Below are positions 26,023 to 42,423 of a stretch of 64,000 nucleotides of DNA, piece after piece. The notes beneath the pieces were generated by a model, which was not told the origin of the DNA, did no database searches, and saw only the letters and a list, made by a program, of their open reading frames with translations. The stretch is from Octopus vulgaris (Eukaryota), in NCBI GenBank assembly GCA_951406725.2, contig OX597818.1, forward strand, positions 94,612,001-94,676,000, read 5' to 3'. Within the stretch, counting starts at the first letter, position 1, and each line of letters opens with the position of its first letter. The translations under genes and the position numbers were made by a program.

Positions 26023-26140
26023 GTTCATGTGTCTCCCACCCACCATCTTGACTGTCTGCCAGCTTGCTTGCTCTCCACCTGCTGGTCACCAGCTTGGCAA
26101 GATTCTCAGCCATGGTTCAAATGACACTAAGTTATATCAG
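26023..26140 (+). promoter_or_regulatory. 5' arm of a putative long-range intronic RNA duplex (downstream of exon 6A)
   Basis: Several colinear helices with 42229-42423. Example: CACCAGCTTGGCAAGATTCTCAGC (26087-26110) against GCTGAAAATCTGCCTAGCTAGTG (42257-42279) gives 20 Watson-Crick pairs. Confidence 0.8.
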
Positions 26141-27479
26141 CTGACATAGATTTCTTTCCTTTACCAGAAGGTCATATTTTACCCACAGTTCTGGCAGCAG
26201 GGTGGGGATTGGTTTCTTTTTAATTATTCACTTCTTATTTTTATTTATTTTATTTTACTATTTTGTTTCTTCCTTTTCCTCGAATGTGTAATGAACTGTT
26301 ATTTCTGTGTGTGAGTATGTAATGAATCAAGTTTAAACTCTCTATAACTCAGTTATTATTGTGTGTTCATTACAGGCATATTACAGATAAACGTTCAAGC
26401 TGAACATCAACCATATCAACCTCACTTATCTCAGTGGGTGTGAAAGTGTTATACACAGTTTCCTTTCCCTCTGTTCAAACGATAATGTGTGAGTGTGTGT
26501 GTGTCTGTGCATGTATGTGTGTCTGTGGTATGATAGAATGAACTAATACCCTATATTATTTAATAACCATTCTGTTCGTTACAGATGTGTGTGTGTGTGT
26601 GTGTGTGTGTGTGTGTGTGTGTGTATGTATGTGTGTGTGTGTGTATATATATATATATATATATATATATATATACATACATGTATGTAGGTAGAGAAAG
26701 TGTGTGCACATGCATGCAATAATGTGTCTTTCTAATGTCCGATTTCATCATGAGACATGGACTACATATTCACAATACATTTAGAGCCTGAACATTCTAT
26801 GGACAATTCCCTAGAAAGATAGGATAATGCTCACACAAATTGTTTGTTGAATTAACACTAGCATCATTGAATGTATGCTATACAGGCATCAACCGAAATA
26901 GCTCATGCTGATTCACTCTTCTTCATAGGATTATCTGTAGCTATATAATTATATGATGGTCATCACCTGGTTAGATGGTCAAAGGAGCTATTCAAAAATC
27001 AGCCAATGACTGTATAAATATATATATATAAATAAAGTGTGTGTATGTGTGTTTATGTATGTATACATACATATATGTATACCTATATGTTTGTGTGCAT
27101 CCAACCCATGCCAGCATAGAAAATGGACATTAAATGATGATGATGATATATATATATATATATATATATATATATATATATACATCTAAGCATATATGTG
27201 TCTGTGTGTGTATATATATATATATACACACACACACATACATACATACACATATGTGTGTGTCTGTGTTTATGTCCTCTTCTATTTTTTTATATGTTTC
27301 AGCCTAAAGGCTGTGGCCATGCTGAGGCACTGCTCGCATCATCACTTTTTTTAGTTGCCATTCCTATCAGGTTGGTTTTTGGTGAGAGAAGGAATTTGAT
27401 ATTATTGCCCTTGTTTGAGTTTGTTGCTTTGATGTAGGTTCATTTGGGGTCTTAGACACCAGAAGGTCTACACAACTCC

Positions 27480-29560
27480 ATATAGATATGTCAAGTTTTT
27501 GACAAGGTATTAAATAGTTGTGAACCTTTGAATCCTAAGTCATTGCAATACCTGGTTTGCACTCTACATGGAATGAGTAGGACCTTTGGAGCAGTGCAGG
27601 GGTTGGTATAATTCATGATGCCAAAGCTTGGTGCCTGTCTCTCTCTATGTATATCACTGCATACCTCTCCTACCTTCACTTCAACTTCAATCTCTTTCAG
27701 ATCAAGTGTTTCATTGATGCAGATCTCTTTTCGATGTAGCATTGCTGAACTGCTTTGAATTTTTCTATTAAATTGACACTGTGAATTGGCCATAGTTGAG
27801 AGTAGTAGTCCAGATGGCTGAGGACAAATGACCTCCATAAGACAGCATAGTTTCCTGGATCTATGTCCTGAAAGTTCTCAGAATTCACCTAGCCATTCAC
27901 CTGCACATTGCCAACATCATTTGATATGTATATGAAATGACACATCATTGCTCATATCAATCCCCAGGTCACACACACTGTATTTGACTCTGGAGTTACT
28001 GCCCCTTTTGGTCCAAAGTATTTTTGTTGTGGTGTGTTAGCAGAGAGCTTGGAATTTTCTGCATTAAATTGCATCTTGTTTTCTTCAGCCCATTTGTATT
28101 TAGGTCTTTGTTTAGAAAATTAGCATTATTAGGATTCTTGACTGTTTGTACTTCTTTTTCATCATTCGCTTAGATAGTAGGAGTGGCTGTCTGTATTACT
28201 GATGGTACGTCTGAGCAGGCCAAAATAACCAGTAGTGGTCCCAAGACAGTTCTGAAGTACTCCACTTGTCAATACCAATGGCTGATATTGCATCAGTTTC
28301 CTCTATTTCAATGTAATCGATAATTGCCATCATTCGTGTAGAGCTGTAGTGTCAAAGAACATGTTTGGCATATTTATTTGCAAGTGCCCCAACAGAAGTG
28401 TGAAAGCAATTTTGTATTGCATATTTAGCATTTCATTTATCCTTCAGGTGTCTCTAGTCAGTGAGCCATTTTCTTTGAACAGTGGCACTATCTTGTACTG
28501 TACTGAAGCAGACTGTTTTGCAAATTTATGGAAGGCTTTGGGGTTTGCCTTTACATTTTTTACAGTCCAGGCTTCTTTTTTCTTGCTTTCTCCTTTTCAT
28601 AGGAATGTTTGAGTTCACTTTCAATCTCATGCAGTTCTTATTTGAGATTGGGTTCCTCACTATCATTTAGTGGTCCATTTAGATGATATGAGATTTTTGT
28701 CCATTGTCTCATTAGAATTTTCCTATATCTGAGAATTGTGTTTTTCTGGCACTTAGACTTTCTCTCTGGAGTAAACTTGCCATGGTTGTCATAAAATGTT
28801 GTAGCTTTATGTCAGTATCTTGCATAGAGAGACTGGCAGACCAGTTATGTTCCAGTACCTCTTTCAGAATACCTTTTCAGTTAGCTTTATGAAAGTTCCT
28901 GCTGGAAAGGAATCAGGTGTTTGTCTGTAGTTCTTCTTGGATCATACTTTGTTAGTTCCAATCTTTGGTGTCACATTTATATTATGGGTGAGCACCACCT
29001 TATTTGTAAAGAAGAGGTCCATGACATTTTTACCCCTTGTTGGGTAGAAAACTATTTGCTCCATGAATTGCATATTTTTATGGTCAAGTAGAGACTCTGC
29101 CTGCTTGTGTTCATGCAGTAACATTCCTGAGAGGGGATGTCCCTCAGGTCACTCAACATTAGGGAAATCAAAGTCCCCTAGAAGTATGTGAAGGTTATCA
29201 TCTTCGTTGGTTACTCTCTCTCTGTCTCTCTCTTCCATCATTTTGAATGAGTCCTCATGATTTGGGGAAAATCTGGGAACAATATGTCGTACATACTACC
29301 ATTTTGTTTTGCTTAATGTGTATCACAAACTGAGTTAGAGTGACAATAAGACTATAGACATGACATCTTTTTGGATGTACATCTCAACTCCACCATGTTC
29401 TTTCCCTCTTATCACTTTGAAATACACCATATGTATTCCAGTGTCTACTATGTCAGTGGTTAGATGTATATGTGTTAGTGACATGCATATTGCTTGATTA
29501 CATGTAACTAAGTCTCTCAAGAATGCTGGTGGAGTGTTACAAGGCCTCTCATATTCTATA
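27480..29560 (-). mobile_element. Decayed CR1/L2-group LINE ORF2 (APE endonuclease plus RT), internally deleted
   Basis: Minus-strand motifs: LLGDFDFPNV (~29155-29185), PTRGKNVMDLFFTN (~29000-29045), SGV.Q/VLGPLL (~28225-28265), SFVLSHLDYYSQLW (~27790-27835), YCNDLGFKGSQLFN (~27510-27555). Confidence 0.85.
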
Positions 29561-39979: not shown

Positions 39980-40345
39980 TGGCTGTATGGTTGAGAAGCT
40001 TGCTCTTCAATCATATGATCTCAAGTTGAGTCTCACTGTGTAACACCTTGGGCAAGTGCCTTCTTCTATAGCCCTGGGCTTCCCAAAGCCTTGTGAGTGG
40101 AGTCCGTAACCAGAAAGCAGATGAAGTCTGCTATCTGTATGTATGTGTGTGTGTGTACCCTTGTCTTGACATTATGTGATGGTTGTAAATGAGCATCATT
40201 TTCATATAAGCGATGTAATTGTTTCCAGGCCTCAGTGAAAATCATGTTTGGTCATAGGAAAACAGGTGGGAGGCTTGTGACAGAACAGGGTATCCAGCCA
40301 TAGAAAAACTGCTTCAACAAAATCCATCTGACCCATGCAAACATA
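39980..40345 (+). mobile_element. SINE family B with GGGTATCCAGCCATAGAAA 3' tail
   Basis: CACCTTGGGCAAGTGCCTTCT..CTATAGCC core; tail shared with 34700-34830 and 57620-57745. Confidence 0.8.
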
Positions 40346-42228
40346 GTAAAAATATGTAAAAATTAACACATGTATATGTGTTTGTGTGCTTCATATCTGT
40401 AATTTCATGATGTTACAATCATGTTAAACTGTAACTAATAAGAAGGACGGTGTCATCCTAAAATAAGATCTCTTGACTAATTTCTGTTTCATACTATATT
40501 GAATGACCAATGAAAGACCATGCACTGTCCTAGTTACTTGAAACAGATCAAACAGGTCAGTGACAATAGATAAAAAGACTATGGAAATGTTCTTTACATA
40601 AGTGAGTAATTTCCTCACCAGATTTGTATATATTGATACACATACACGCACGCACGCACGCACACACACACACACACACACACACACACACACATACTTA
40701 TGTGTATACACATACCTCTATCTATCTATCTATCTATCTATTTATATATATATATATATATATATATATCTCACACACACATCATTGTCATCAGTTTATA
40801 TCCAGTTTCCATGCTGACATATGTTGGACAATTCATTACAGTTTGAGTCCTTGTATGTGCTCTTTTAGACATGGCTGGACTGGGGACCACACCTCTATCA
40901 TCTATTGTTATTGGCATATTGTCTACAACTTTATGCCATTCCTCACACCAGCCACATTACACAGTGTACTGGATGCATTTTTTTCATGTCACTAGTACTA
41001 GCAAGGGTGTTGTGTCCTCATTGAGACTAAATGTTCTCCTGAACCCTACAATGTTTCATCCACCAACCTTGTTATGGTGTACAGGATGTATTTATTGTGG
41101 CATCAGTACTGGAGAGATTGTTATGTCCTGGCCAAGACAAGAGTCCTTCCAACCTATTATGTTTCCATTTGTTCACCCACCACTTCATAAAAGGATGCAA
41201 CTTATCCTTATACCATAATTAATGAGGGTTGCCTTGTGTCTGGTTCCTCTCTGCTCTGTGTGATCTCCATTTCAAGGGAAAATGAGTTGAAAAGAACAAT
41301 TGCAGAGAATGGACTAGTGTGAAGTGGAGAGAAGAGGCTGATATTGGTGGAAAAATGAATTGGTAAAACATGATAGATTGTGCTAGAAGAGTAATGAATG
41401 GTAATATGAATGTATACATGGAGAGATAGGCAGCAGTAGCCTAGAAAAATACGGTTGCTGTATGATTAAGAGAGCTTGATGTTTATCACTTAGAAGCAGC
41501 CTGATGGTGAAGGAGTACTAACTAGTCAGCAGTATGGAAGGGGAAGGTAATTTGAGCTAACAAAGAGAGTACAGGTATTGAGGTGACATGGAAAGAGAAT
41601 TAGTGAAGACTGTCAGTGGAAAAGTGACATAGAAGAGAGATGGGCAATGACAATGGTGTGTGCGTTTCAGGAGAGTAAATGAGGTGGAGGTTCATTACAC
41701 ACACGTTCGCTTGCACACACACACACATGTATATATGTATATAAGCATGTATATGTACCCATGCATATCATGTATGTGCATATACATGTATGTATATATG
41801 TATATAGACTGAATTGGCAATCATAAGAATGTTGCATAAAATAGCTTGATATTCATTCCAACTCCCTGTGTTTGAAGTTCAGATCCCTTCCAGGTCAACT
41901 TTATCAATCCTGAAAGGATGAAAGGCAAATAAAATACTAGTCCACTGGGTAGGTGGTGGTGGGGCTGATTAATCTTCTCTTTCTCTCTTTTATCTTTTTT
42001 TTTTCCATCTGAAAGAAATTGGCTATGATCAGACATGGGAGAAGAATGGACTCTGGTAGGTTTAAAAAAGCCCAAGACATACTGTTTTTCTTTACAGTGC
42101 CCCTACGGCTCCATCAGAAGCCAACAACTCAAAAGAATGAAAAAAGTGTGTGTGTGTGTGTGTGTATGTGTAAGAGCATACATTCAGATACACCTAAATG
42201 CATGTATATGGCCTGTTTCTCAATACAC

Positions 42229-42423
42229 TTGAATAGCCTCATCAATGTCCTCTGAAGCTGAAAATCTGCCTAGCTAGTGTACAGAATAGTGGTCGGGCAA
42301 GCAAAATCCAATCCCTCTCCCCTCCATTTATCATCCAAAGCATAGCTGCAGCGGAGTTACTGCACTAGTAATGCATGGGGTAGTCAGTCAGTCAGACAGT
42401 TGTTGCTATGGTGACATGTGAGC
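42229..42423 (+). promoter_or_regulatory. 3' arm of a putative long-range intronic RNA duplex (upstream of exon 6B)
   Basis: Reverse-complementary to 26023-26140 in nested order, with an ~88-nt insertion (42305-42392). Ends ~40 nt before the 6B acceptor. Confidence 0.8.

Follow-up and report, generated by a model that had tools for sequence, protein, structure and literature searches.

The CaMKII locus and its paired exons

The window (the whole stretch of DNA that was analysed, 64 kb long) covers positions 94,612,001-94,676,000 of Octopus vulgaris OX597818.1, forward strand, and contains exons 5, 6A, 6B and 7 of the octopus CaMKII gene, apparently the only CaMKII gene in this genome (Table 1). 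Exons 6A and 6B are adjacent and homologous, share length (73 nt) and phase, and have intact splice sites, as is typical of tandem duplication; they are identical at 56 of 73 nucleotides and 17 of 24 amino acids. In an RNA contig (run X20), exons 5, 6B and 7 are joined and 6A is absent. At the same protein position, 6B is found in 35 proteins and 6A in 3, counts that reflect annotation models and not expression levels, with frameshifted forms being invisible in proteins. Each exon is used alone between the same flanks, as seen for 6A in annotation and conservation only. The two exons thus form an either-or pair of old origin, and their identification as CaMKII 6A/6B in a preliminary description of this DNA is confirmed. 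That description overlooked the shared length of 73 nt and its consequence for the reading frame. Both double inclusion and double skip cause a frameshift, with an early stop at codon 57 of 104 when exons 5-6A-6B-7 are joined and at codon 39 of 56 when exon 5 is joined to exon 7. Thus, decay alone can enforce exclusivity.

The intron between 6A (donor GT at 25970) and 6B spans 16.5 kb, compared with 0.2-2.4 kb in other animals; short 6A-6B introns are present in 10 contigs that carry both exons. The nearest AG upstream of the acceptor lies 182 nt away for 6A and 29 nt away for 6B.

Table 1. Features of the CaMKII cassette, in positions of the window
Feature	Position	Strand	Basis
CaMKII exon 5, constitutive, 66 nt	2435-2500	+	Open frame with AG/GT bounds; 3′ end fits loose end of run X20 RNA contig
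(CT)n tract upstream of 6A	25718-25852	+	Tandem repeat list; sits in 182-nt AG-free zone
Exon 6A, 73 nt, encodes the kinase from helix E to the catalytic loop	25897-25969	+	Peptide exact in 3 named Octopus proteins; L013 24/24 identical
Local hairpin burying 6A donor (25969-25985 with 26028-26044)	25969-26044	+	z -3.7, 1/200 shuffles; -28.2 kcal/mol; joint-ensemble probability 1.0
Outer 5′ arm X (three outer helices of the preliminary description), overlaps donor hairpin	26023-26058	+	Strings confirmed
Core 5′ arm	26064-26140	+	Cofold, duplex scans; within 176-nt intron stretch kept under four organism labels
Core 3′ arm	42229-42304	+	Cofold, duplex scans; no listed change in runs X4, X19; 1x1 A-C mismatches at A42276 (within UAG) and A42262
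Side arm separating core from outer helix, 88 nt, own hairpin 42335-42378	42305-42392	+	Holds 42330, only X19 change in 42229-42423
Outer 3′ arm Y, ends 10 nt short of candidate branch A	42393-42423	+	Strings confirmed; no listed change in X4, X19
Candidate 6B branch site with A at 42433 (acceptor 32 nt away); alternative candidate A at 42414	42430-42434	+	Consensus match only
Exon 6B, 73 nt	42465-42537	+	In run X20 RNA contig; peptide exact in 35 proteins
Element Z, less certain; can pair with Y, looping out exon 6B	42741-42771	+	Y:Z -30.9 kcal/mol; region z -3.0, 1/100 shuffles
CaMKII exon 7, constitutive, 103 nt	51896-51998	+	Start fits loose end of run X20 RNA contig
Claimed nested helices, outer to inner	26023-32/42414-23; 26041-46/42408-13 (CACCAU/AUGGUG); 26049-58/42393-402; 26064-73/42295-304	+	Strings confirmed
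Claimed nested helices, inner part	26075-78/42289-92 (CCAC/GUGG); 26087-26110/42257-79; 26116-26/42246-56; 26131-40/42229-37	+	Strings confirmed

A core duplex between the intron ends

The preliminary description proposed a duplex of ~120 nt between the ends of the long intron, made of eight nested helices. All eight are present as strings, in the claimed positions and order, although only part of the duplex is supported: the 77-nt core (52 pairs, 2 of them G-U; -59.5 kcal/mol) is, whereas the outer helices (X paired with Y) have a probability of 0.00-0.01 in the joint ensemble, where the donor hairpin is favoured. When the first 200 and last 260 intron bases were cofolded, binding reached -33.8 kcal/mol, against -9.5 ± 4.1 for dinucleotide shuffles, none of which (0/358) was as strong. 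The identical test on the two flanking introns gave no excess binding (z +0.9 and +0.4). By contrast, other forms of the proposed comparison with shuffles were null, with z -0.8 for a plain 250x250 duplexfold of the intron ends and z -0.3 for binding of 150-nt ends, which exclude the core 3′ arm. Thus, the significance resides in the 77-nt core and not in the 120-nt duplex.

A local duplex scan of the 64-kb window, with simple repeats masked, found 26064-26110 and 42257-42304 to be reciprocal best partners (0/500 shuffles), and no competitor of equal strength for the core arms. This helix also ranks first among the non-repeat pairings in 25800-42900. Its score is nearly matched by that of the runner-up (-23.1 and -22.5), so it is the placement, and not the score alone, that carries weight; the chance of a top helix linking both intron ends is ~5e-4. 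Each core arm has one match in the genome, in a search that can miss common words, and neither has a second copy in the window or an Rfam family; as far as this goes, the earlier view that the arms are not repeats holds. The antisense strand folds better than the sense strand (-73.0 against -60.7). The core encloses the intron only, looping out no exon, and is a long imperfect duplex with A-C mismatches, as ADAR substrates are.

A hairpin at the 6A donor and alternative pairings

A local hairpin that buries the 6A donor had been overlooked in the preliminary description. Opening this donor requires 15.6 kcal/mol, compared with 8.0 ± 2.2 in controls (0/30 as high), and in the joint ensemble the core has a probability of 0.97 together with the hairpin. 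The outer elements have alternative partners: X can pair with the donor or with Y, and Y with X or with Z, in an ensemble that is one-sided and uncoupled. For 26049-26060, the likelier partner is 42379-42390 (26049-54/42385-90, probability 0.92; 26056-60/42379-83, probability 1.0). Only the weaker Y:Z pairing encloses 6B; Z ranks only seventh among the partners of Y in the window scan, and one Y:Z end pair is broken in run X4 (42756).

Conservation of the arms

Base by base, only the 3′ arm could be followed in other organisms, the 5′ arm being followed by sampled words. In run X19, the 3′ arm region has 1 change in 195 nt, at 42330 in a loop; the 593 nt compared beyond this region have 11 changes plus 5 indel sites. 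For the 5′ arm, 15/15 sampled words of the 176-nt stretch are present in runs of four organism labels. Fisher P values for arm conservation are 0.16 for substitutions and 0.05 with indels; treating the 5′ arm as unchanged, on the basis of its words, lowers them to 0.024 and 0.003. Thus, the arms are nearly identical in close relatives (P 0.003-0.16), whereas no compensatory change was seen among the close relatives compared (3′ arm only, with low power), and no end-to-end duplex in 8 distant orthologous introns (185-2408 nt). The donor is unusually buried in 1 of these 8 orthologues. A stretch outside every helix, 42918-43085, is likewise unchanged in X19.

What the duplex may do

The predicted end-to-end duplex probably helps to steer exon choice. 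The explanation that we tentatively prefer is a splicing-regulatory RNA bridge of the octopus lineage, which would re-compact the expanded cassette and, together with the donor hairpin, bias the choice between 6A and 6B. The hairpin would form once 6A is transcribed and restrain the use of this exon. Later, with the polymerase at 6B, pairing of the core arms would fold out the 16-kb intron and bring the 6B acceptor to about the place of 6A; we propose that the exons then compete much as they did when the ancestral cassette was compact. The bridge would also shorten the route from 6A to exon 7. In effect, the structure would fix the 6A/6B ratio, tilted to 6B, in the manner of the 30-kb R2-R5 pairing of ATE1 and the balancer pairings of Dscam1; long pairings that set ratios have been described for these genes (PMC7797038; PMC8791459). 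Strict exclusivity would come mainly from masking of the donor and decay of the frameshifted RNAs that include or skip both exons, rather than from steric hindrance. Counting against the bridge, structures that join intron ends usually promote removal of the intron that they bridge (PMC12350175; PMC10790352). Other points against it are the stronger antisense fold, the weak conservation signal and the nil donor-branch coupling in silico.

It is unlikely, although some observations would fit, that the duplex is a functionless relic: a decayed inverted duplication (~70% identity) that lies near the splice sites by chance, with exclusivity arising from decay and from proteins, for instance at the (CT)n tract before 6A. 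The arms do align as a colinear inverted repeat without sense-strand preference, the runner-up helix is nearly as good, no covariation was seen in the close relatives, the distant orthologues show no such duplex, and the early stops make a structure unnecessary for exclusivity; for Drosophila Rdl, a structure had been predicted that turned out not to be needed (PMC13762713). Evidence against such a relic comes from the placement at both intron ends, the low divergence of both arms and the independent strong donor hairpin adjoining the core, and no further arm copy was found in the genome.

A similarly low probability is given to the possibility that the duplex exists for editing or ADAR recruitment, with effects on splicing that are secondary or depend on editing. 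Here, A42276 and A42262 would become I-C pairs that tighten the clamp, or the stem would draw ADAR to nearby exon sites. Both As lie on the 3′ arm, and one has the UAG context that ADAR prefers. Reading I as G gains ~6.5 kcal/mol at each site, which is an overestimate, and 2 G-U in 52 pairs together with the stronger antisense fold suit a duplex in which A-C mismatches are kept. An A that faces C flips out more readily, and cephalopods make wide use of recoding (PMC9479739). In contrast, exon 6B in the X20 RNA contig, which covers exons and not the arms, has 0 differences from the genome, and 38/38 proteins carry the genomic exon peptides.

The mechanism first proposed for this duplex is less likely again. 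In that model, the full nested duplex blocks joining of 6A to 6B, either by bringing donor and branch point too close or by masking the 6B branch; with the donor hairpin included, it becomes a toggle, X covering either the donor of 6A or the region around the 6B branch. In its favour, the outer helices extend the core in register, X:Y is as strong as the donor hairpin when each is taken alone (-29.5 and -28.2 kcal/mol), X can take either of two partners that exclude each other, as R3 of ATE1 does, and Y is unchanged in runs X4 and X19. Nevertheless, at 37 °C the formation of X:Y costs 12 kcal/mol if Z is left out and 19 if it is included, with 14-22 at 18 °C, and X:Y stays absent even if the donor is forced open, the coupling between donor and branch region being 0.0-0.3 kcal/mol. 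A steric clamp, as in tropomyosin, is therefore not supported, since it needs the outer helices, and these are outcompeted by the donor hairpin. Exclusion of this steric kind, due to a branch point lying close to the donor, has reportedly also been described for Dscam exon 17 (Yue 2013). From donor to predicted branch A, the most compact fold, itself disfavoured, leaves 63 nt (53 + 10; 16.4 kb when linear) and not the 50-60 nt given earlier. These 63 nt exceed the threshold of ~50 nt for steric exclusion (PMC7969005), and the AG-free zone before 6B, at 29 nt, is not the long one expected of such a system. In modelling described in PMC12350175, linkers of 42-85 nt fit the spliceosome, so 63 nt falls inside this range, and 20 nt near the branch point must stay free for the A complex. 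The end of X:Y lies within these 20 nt, 10 nt from branch A; masking of the branch by the outer helix is thus possible, only if proteins stabilise this helix.

A further elaboration, slightly more doubtful still, joins editing to the preferred bridge: the ancient cassette would have been kept through a roughly twenty-fold expansion of the intron because the intron ends were kept as a stem with a 16-kb loop, tuned by A-to-I editing at the A-C mismatches and controlling the CaMKII catalytic-loop exon by means of a structure within the middle intron instead of docking sites. Least probable is a zipper stem that promotes 6A-to-6B splicing and thereby a frameshifted, decay-bound RNA tuning the CaMKII level, since, although in yeast stems uniting donor and branch point aid splicing (PMC12350175) and the 6A-6B double product has an early stop, the 6A donor is buried by the hairpin and no 6A-6B joint was found, in an RNA stretch (run X20) that joins 5-6B-7 and does not include 6A.

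Relation to known systems

This cassette offers a simple test case: it has two exons, a single dominant duplex and a donor hairpin, and the introns of its relatives are short. CaMKII plays a central part in synaptic plasticity. Exon 6 encodes the stretch that runs to the catalytic loop and, in mammals, adjoins the ATP site (PMC9741552). How either-or exons are balanced, despite the head start that a long intron gives to the first, is an open question (PMC8791459). The described examples of either-or exons under RNA-structure control that were considered here come from arthropods and mammals. If the duplex were also edited, cephalopod editing would be linked to exon choice. In agreement with the earlier statement that no such description was known for CaMKII, a literature search yielded no model of control by RNA structure for CaMKII or for any octopus gene.

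Control of either-or exons by RNA structure over 10-30 kb is known for Dscam1 and ATE1. Exons 7a/7b of human ATE1 (elements R1-R5; Kalinina et al. 2021, PMC7797038) are likewise an either-or pair in which a module masking splice sites stands beside a very long pairing (30 kb) that sets the ratio and not exclusivity. There, however, exon 7b sits in the loop of the long pairing and the competing module hides acceptors, whereas in octopus the pairing lies inside the middle intron, no exon is looped and the donor is masked; ATE1 was demonstrated by compensatory mutants, while the octopus duplex is a prediction. The balancer pairings of Dscam1 (PMC8791459), of ~10 kb, have been suggested to make up for the head start that proximal exons have. 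Unlike Dscam1, octopus has two exons only, no docking site common to several selectors was found, and the core loops out no exon. Drosophila srp 4.1/4.2 (Yue et al. 2016, PMC4691838) is also a two-exon cluster with intronic pairings, and Y:Z resembles its downstream stem, which places the second exon in a loop; in octopus, by contrast, there is no prominent upstream stem around 6A, and the strongest helix links the ends of the middle intron.

Alpha-tropomyosin 2/3 and OGDH 4a/4b (PMC7969005) are two-exon clusters of the kind on which the first model was based. Their branch point lies 25-46 nt from the donor on linear RNA, with a long AG-free zone, compared with 16.4 kb (at least 63 nt when folded) and 29 nt in octopus. 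Yeast zipper stems (PMC12350175) similarly join the 5′ and 3′ parts of one intron, although these introns have 400-500 nt, are constitutive and carry stems that mostly promote splicing, whereas the octopus intron has 16.5 kb and lies between alternative exons. Finally, mammalian Camk2d 6A/6B shows duplication of the same kinase exon with either-or use, and the accessible parts of the two reports (PMC12060085, PMC9741552) give no mechanism for the choice. As judged from sequence, the mammalian duplication is probably independent of the octopus one. The delta peptide from the PDB, to which L015 is identical, matches octopus 6A and 6B alike at 83%.

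Either-or exons of the octopus CaMKII gene

The window (G000:C5:94612001-94676000, in a genome of 2.8 Gb) covers coding exons 5, 6A, 6B and 7 of a CaMKII gene, of which 6A and 6B are used on an either-or basis. CaMKII kinase domains are the top PDB matches to the 6B peptide, and the hub-domain family has a single match site, located on the same contig ~250 kb downstream of these exons; named Octopus proteins are 100% identical to the 41-residue hub query, which identifies the animal as an octopus, presumably of that genus. Both aberrant joins, with 6A and 6B included together or neither included, shift the frame and lead to an early stop, and no third exon-6 copy was found within the window. 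In an RNA contig from sequencing run X20, exon 5 is spliced to 6B and 6B to exon 7, with 0 differences from the window. Among 120 protein matches listed, 51 have at least 250 aa and an exon-6-like segment; the exact 6B peptide is present in 35, the exact 6A peptide in 3, both in 0 and neither in 13, counts of annotation models that have little bearing on expression levels.

Coordinates of the exons and pairing segments, as positions in the window
Feature	Position	Description
CaMKII exon 5	2435-2500	coding exon
CaMKII exon 6A	25897-25969	coding exon, 73 nt
Middle intron	25970-42464	
CaMKII exon 6B	42465-42537	coding exon, 73 nt
CaMKII exon 7	51896-51998	coding exon
Core duplex	26064-26140 / 42229-42304	52 pairs, 2 of them G-U
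Outer helices (X with Y)	26023-26058 / 42393-42423	
Segment Z	42741-42771	partner of Y in a 6B loop-out helix

Ahead of the 6A acceptor, a 135-nt (CT)n tract sits in a 182-nt AG-free zone (25715-25896). This zone could possibly hold a distant branch point or a site for a pyrimidine-binding protein, either of which could regulate 6A independently of RNA structure.

A long-range duplex at the ends of the middle intron

A preliminary description proposed that a ~120-nt duplex clamps the middle intron, and all of its helix strings are indeed present where they had been placed. With plain duplexfold, the 250-nt intron ends pair no better than shuffles (z -0.8), the end pair ranking 11th and 3rd among 638 windows. 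Since this program ignores the folding of the arms themselves, we turned to the binding energy, from which each arm's own folding is subtracted, and to a local score from a purpose-written duplex scan with a per-base penalty. The binding energy of the first 200 and last 260 nt of the intron is -33.8 kcal/mol, against -9.5 +/- 4.1 for shuffles, with 0 of 358 as strong. No signal was obtained from the flanking introns in this test (z +0.9 and +0.4), nor from 150-nt intron ends, including those of the window's intron. In the local scan, 26064-26110 and 42257-42304 are the reciprocal best partners of the core arms window-wide (0 of 500 shuffles), and their helix ranks first among the non-repeat helices of 25800-42900. 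The runner-up scores -22.5 compared with -23.1, and thus the case for the core rests on its position: the top helix would join both intron ends by chance with a probability of ~5e-4, uncorrected for the choice of window. The second-best non-repeat helix itself (29762-29779 with 42340-42357), which involves the side arm between the core and the outer helix, is probably due to chance.

As had been described, the arms do not look like repeats, each having one match in the genome by a search that can miss common words, no other copy in the window and no Rfam family. They are absent from the 25 longest of 7845 exact inverted repeats, a listing swamped by microsatellites and dispersed repeats. A docking site upstream or downstream was also considered and rejected, as neither arm has a stronger partner than the core in the window scan. 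The core duplex is a genuine feature and is probably functional, although it is smaller than first described.

The donor hairpin and other local pairings

The 6A donor is buried by a strong local hairpin, absent from the preliminary description, in which 25969-25985 pairs with 26028-26044 (z -3.7). The opening energy of this donor is 15.6 kcal/mol, compared with 8.0 +/- 2.2 in shuffles (0 of 30 reached it), and values are ordinary for the three remaining donors in the window. Of the three outer helices, two share bases with this hairpin. The core (0.97) coexists with the hairpin (1.0) in the joint ensemble, where the probability of the outer helices is 0.00-0.01. The favoured fold extends the long-range pairing to 26049 and 42390, which leaves 79 nt to the donor on one side and 43 nt to branch A, the candidate 6B branch point at 42433, on the other. 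Pairing of Y with Z, which would loop out 6B, has an energy of -30.9 kcal/mol (region z -3.0), Z being only the seventh-ranked partner of Y in the window.

The 6B acceptor and the first half of its exon (42461-42495) can also pair with 42677-42717 in the intron that follows (-27.8 for the sense strand and -16.1 for the antisense; pair probabilities 0.57-0.78), and a change at 42687 in sequencing run X19 would leave its pair intact as G-U. This stem is a candidate acceptor mask or editing partner.

Possible roles of the structure

We tentatively propose that the donor hairpin would delay 6A and that, once 6B has been transcribed, the core would fold out 16 kb and restore a compact cassette. The structure would then set the 6A/6B ratio, and decay would clear errors. 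This is the likeliest of the readings considered, but as a single mechanism it falls somewhat short of probable.

The strand preference of the core bears on two other explanations. The core folds more strongly as antisense (-73.0) than as sense RNA (-60.7) because A42276 and A42262 face C, and the other helices favour the sense strand. A42276 lies in a UAG context, which is preferred for ADAR editing. Both the mismatches and the antisense preference fit either an ADAR substrate or a decayed inverted duplication. The ADAR substrate and the relic are unlikely to the same degree. Base flipping is favoured by A opposite C, and recoding is widespread in cephalopods, as passages of PMC9479739 state.

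The full clamp, or a toggle, is quite unlikely. Forcing the outer helices costs 12 kcal/mol without Z and 19 with it; they are still absent when the donor is forced open, donor and branch region being uncoupled. The most compact fold would leave 53 + 10 = 63 nt between the donor and the predicted branch A, not the 50-60 nt estimated earlier; this distance exceeds the steric threshold of ~50 nt found in passages of PMC7969005 (60 nt is the limit used in PMC13762713). As for the alternative suggestion of branch masking, the outer helix, if formed, would stop 10 nt short of branch A and thus mask the 6B branch region rather than act by distance; its probability is the near-zero one noted for the outer helices. 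An interlock, in which U1 binding frees X to mask this region, was rejected (in-silico coupling 0.0-0.3 kcal/mol), and lower temperature rescued neither it nor the outer helices. Finally, a zipper that feeds decay is very improbable.

Arm sequences in sequencing runs

Of the 24 runs listed, 19, which carry four organism labels, contain all 15 sampled words of intronic 25970-26145, seven rows being flagged as possible sources of the window. Seven runs guessed to be RNA contain every word of this interval, which may reflect stable pre-mRNA or a retained intron after 6A. Four runs were compared over 42175-43085, of which X13 lacks arm coverage and X20 covers the exon only; X20 contains a 0.60 fraction of the 5'-arm words, a value that does not enter the conservation argument. 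For X4, 3 differences from the window are listed and for X19 12, with indels, and thus neither is the window's own DNA. X19 has one change within 42229-42423 (42330, in the unpaired side arm), and the 593 intron nt outside this interval have 11 changes plus 5 indel sites (Fisher P 0.16 and 0.05; 0.024 and 0.003 with the 5' arm counted as unchanged); 42918-43085 is likewise unchanged. No compensatory pair was found in the runs compared over 42175-43085, and the X4 change at 42756 breaks an end pair of the Y:Z helix. This low divergence lends weak support to the duplex.

Relation to known systems

RNA-structure control of either-or exons is already known, and octopus CaMKII would represent a new form of it. 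The nearest system in its working is ATE1 (PMC7797038), whose splice-site-masking module and 30-kb pairing act separately, and the octopus core would work similarly to the Dscam1 balancers (PMC8791459). In contrast to docking-site/selector systems, the core loops out no exon, and it is thus not of that type; nor does the arrangement appear to be of the srp type, as outlined in parts of PMC4691838. The cassette also differs from steric-exclusion systems, as the AG-free zone before 6B is not long: it has 29 nt here and 13-114 nt across 10 orthologous introns, and a distant 6B branch point was rejected. In mammalian Camk2d, exon 6 is used either-or, and the relevant sections of PMC12060085 and PMC9741552 give no mechanism. 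Sections of the reviews PMC11802352, PMC6071210 and PMC10790352 were also compared, and those of PMC8373072 do not mention CAMK2. As the preliminary description had supposed, no RNA-structure model for CaMKII was found in the literature searched, which was mostly non-subscription and without supplements; in it, nothing was found on the octopus gene, and no clamp inside the middle intron was found among the papers listed. CAMK2D pairings may be listed in the supplements of surveys on structure or exon duplication, outside this scope.

Distant orthologues

A degenerate exon-6 pattern matched 68 stretches in metagenome contigs, ten of which contain both copies in the order of the window. In all seven contigs compared, the first exon is closer to 6A and the second to 6B; thus, the exon pair is old. 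The middle introns of the ten contigs have 185-2408 nt, and that of the octopus is expanded. A clamp in orthologous introns did not emerge: pairing exceeded shuffles in 0 of 8 distinct distant introns, with L045 and L048 omitted as near copies of L017, and seven were retested with longer ends to the same effect, L020 being too short. The arm sequences have no match in the metagenome loci, and an unusually buried 6A donor occurs in one of 8 orthologues (L013).

The 185-nt middle intron of L020 forms one long hairpin of -50.4 kcal/mol, but with a z of only -2.0; it may reflect the ancestral state, before expansion of the loop. The 6A donor GTGGGT is common to L013, L025, L035, L056, L062 and the window (25970-25975). 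L013, L025 and L035 have it at their 6B donors too, and thus the motif may be an inheritance of the duplication rather than a pairing constraint. The final 70 nt of the L025 and L056 middle introns include a conserved island whose GGTGAT motif lies 25-27 nt before the 6B acceptor; a similar motif at window 42409-42414 is a second branch candidate inside Y. In L005, L012, L014 and L030, one 6B-like exon stands between exons 5 and 7 and 6A is absent from this interval, through either lineage loss of 6A or paralogy, and L047 keeps a diverged 6A with a 6B nearly identical to theirs. In the compact CaMKII genes of the L009, L018 and L021 group, introns are tiny, exon 6 is single and exon 7 is interrupted by an additional intron.
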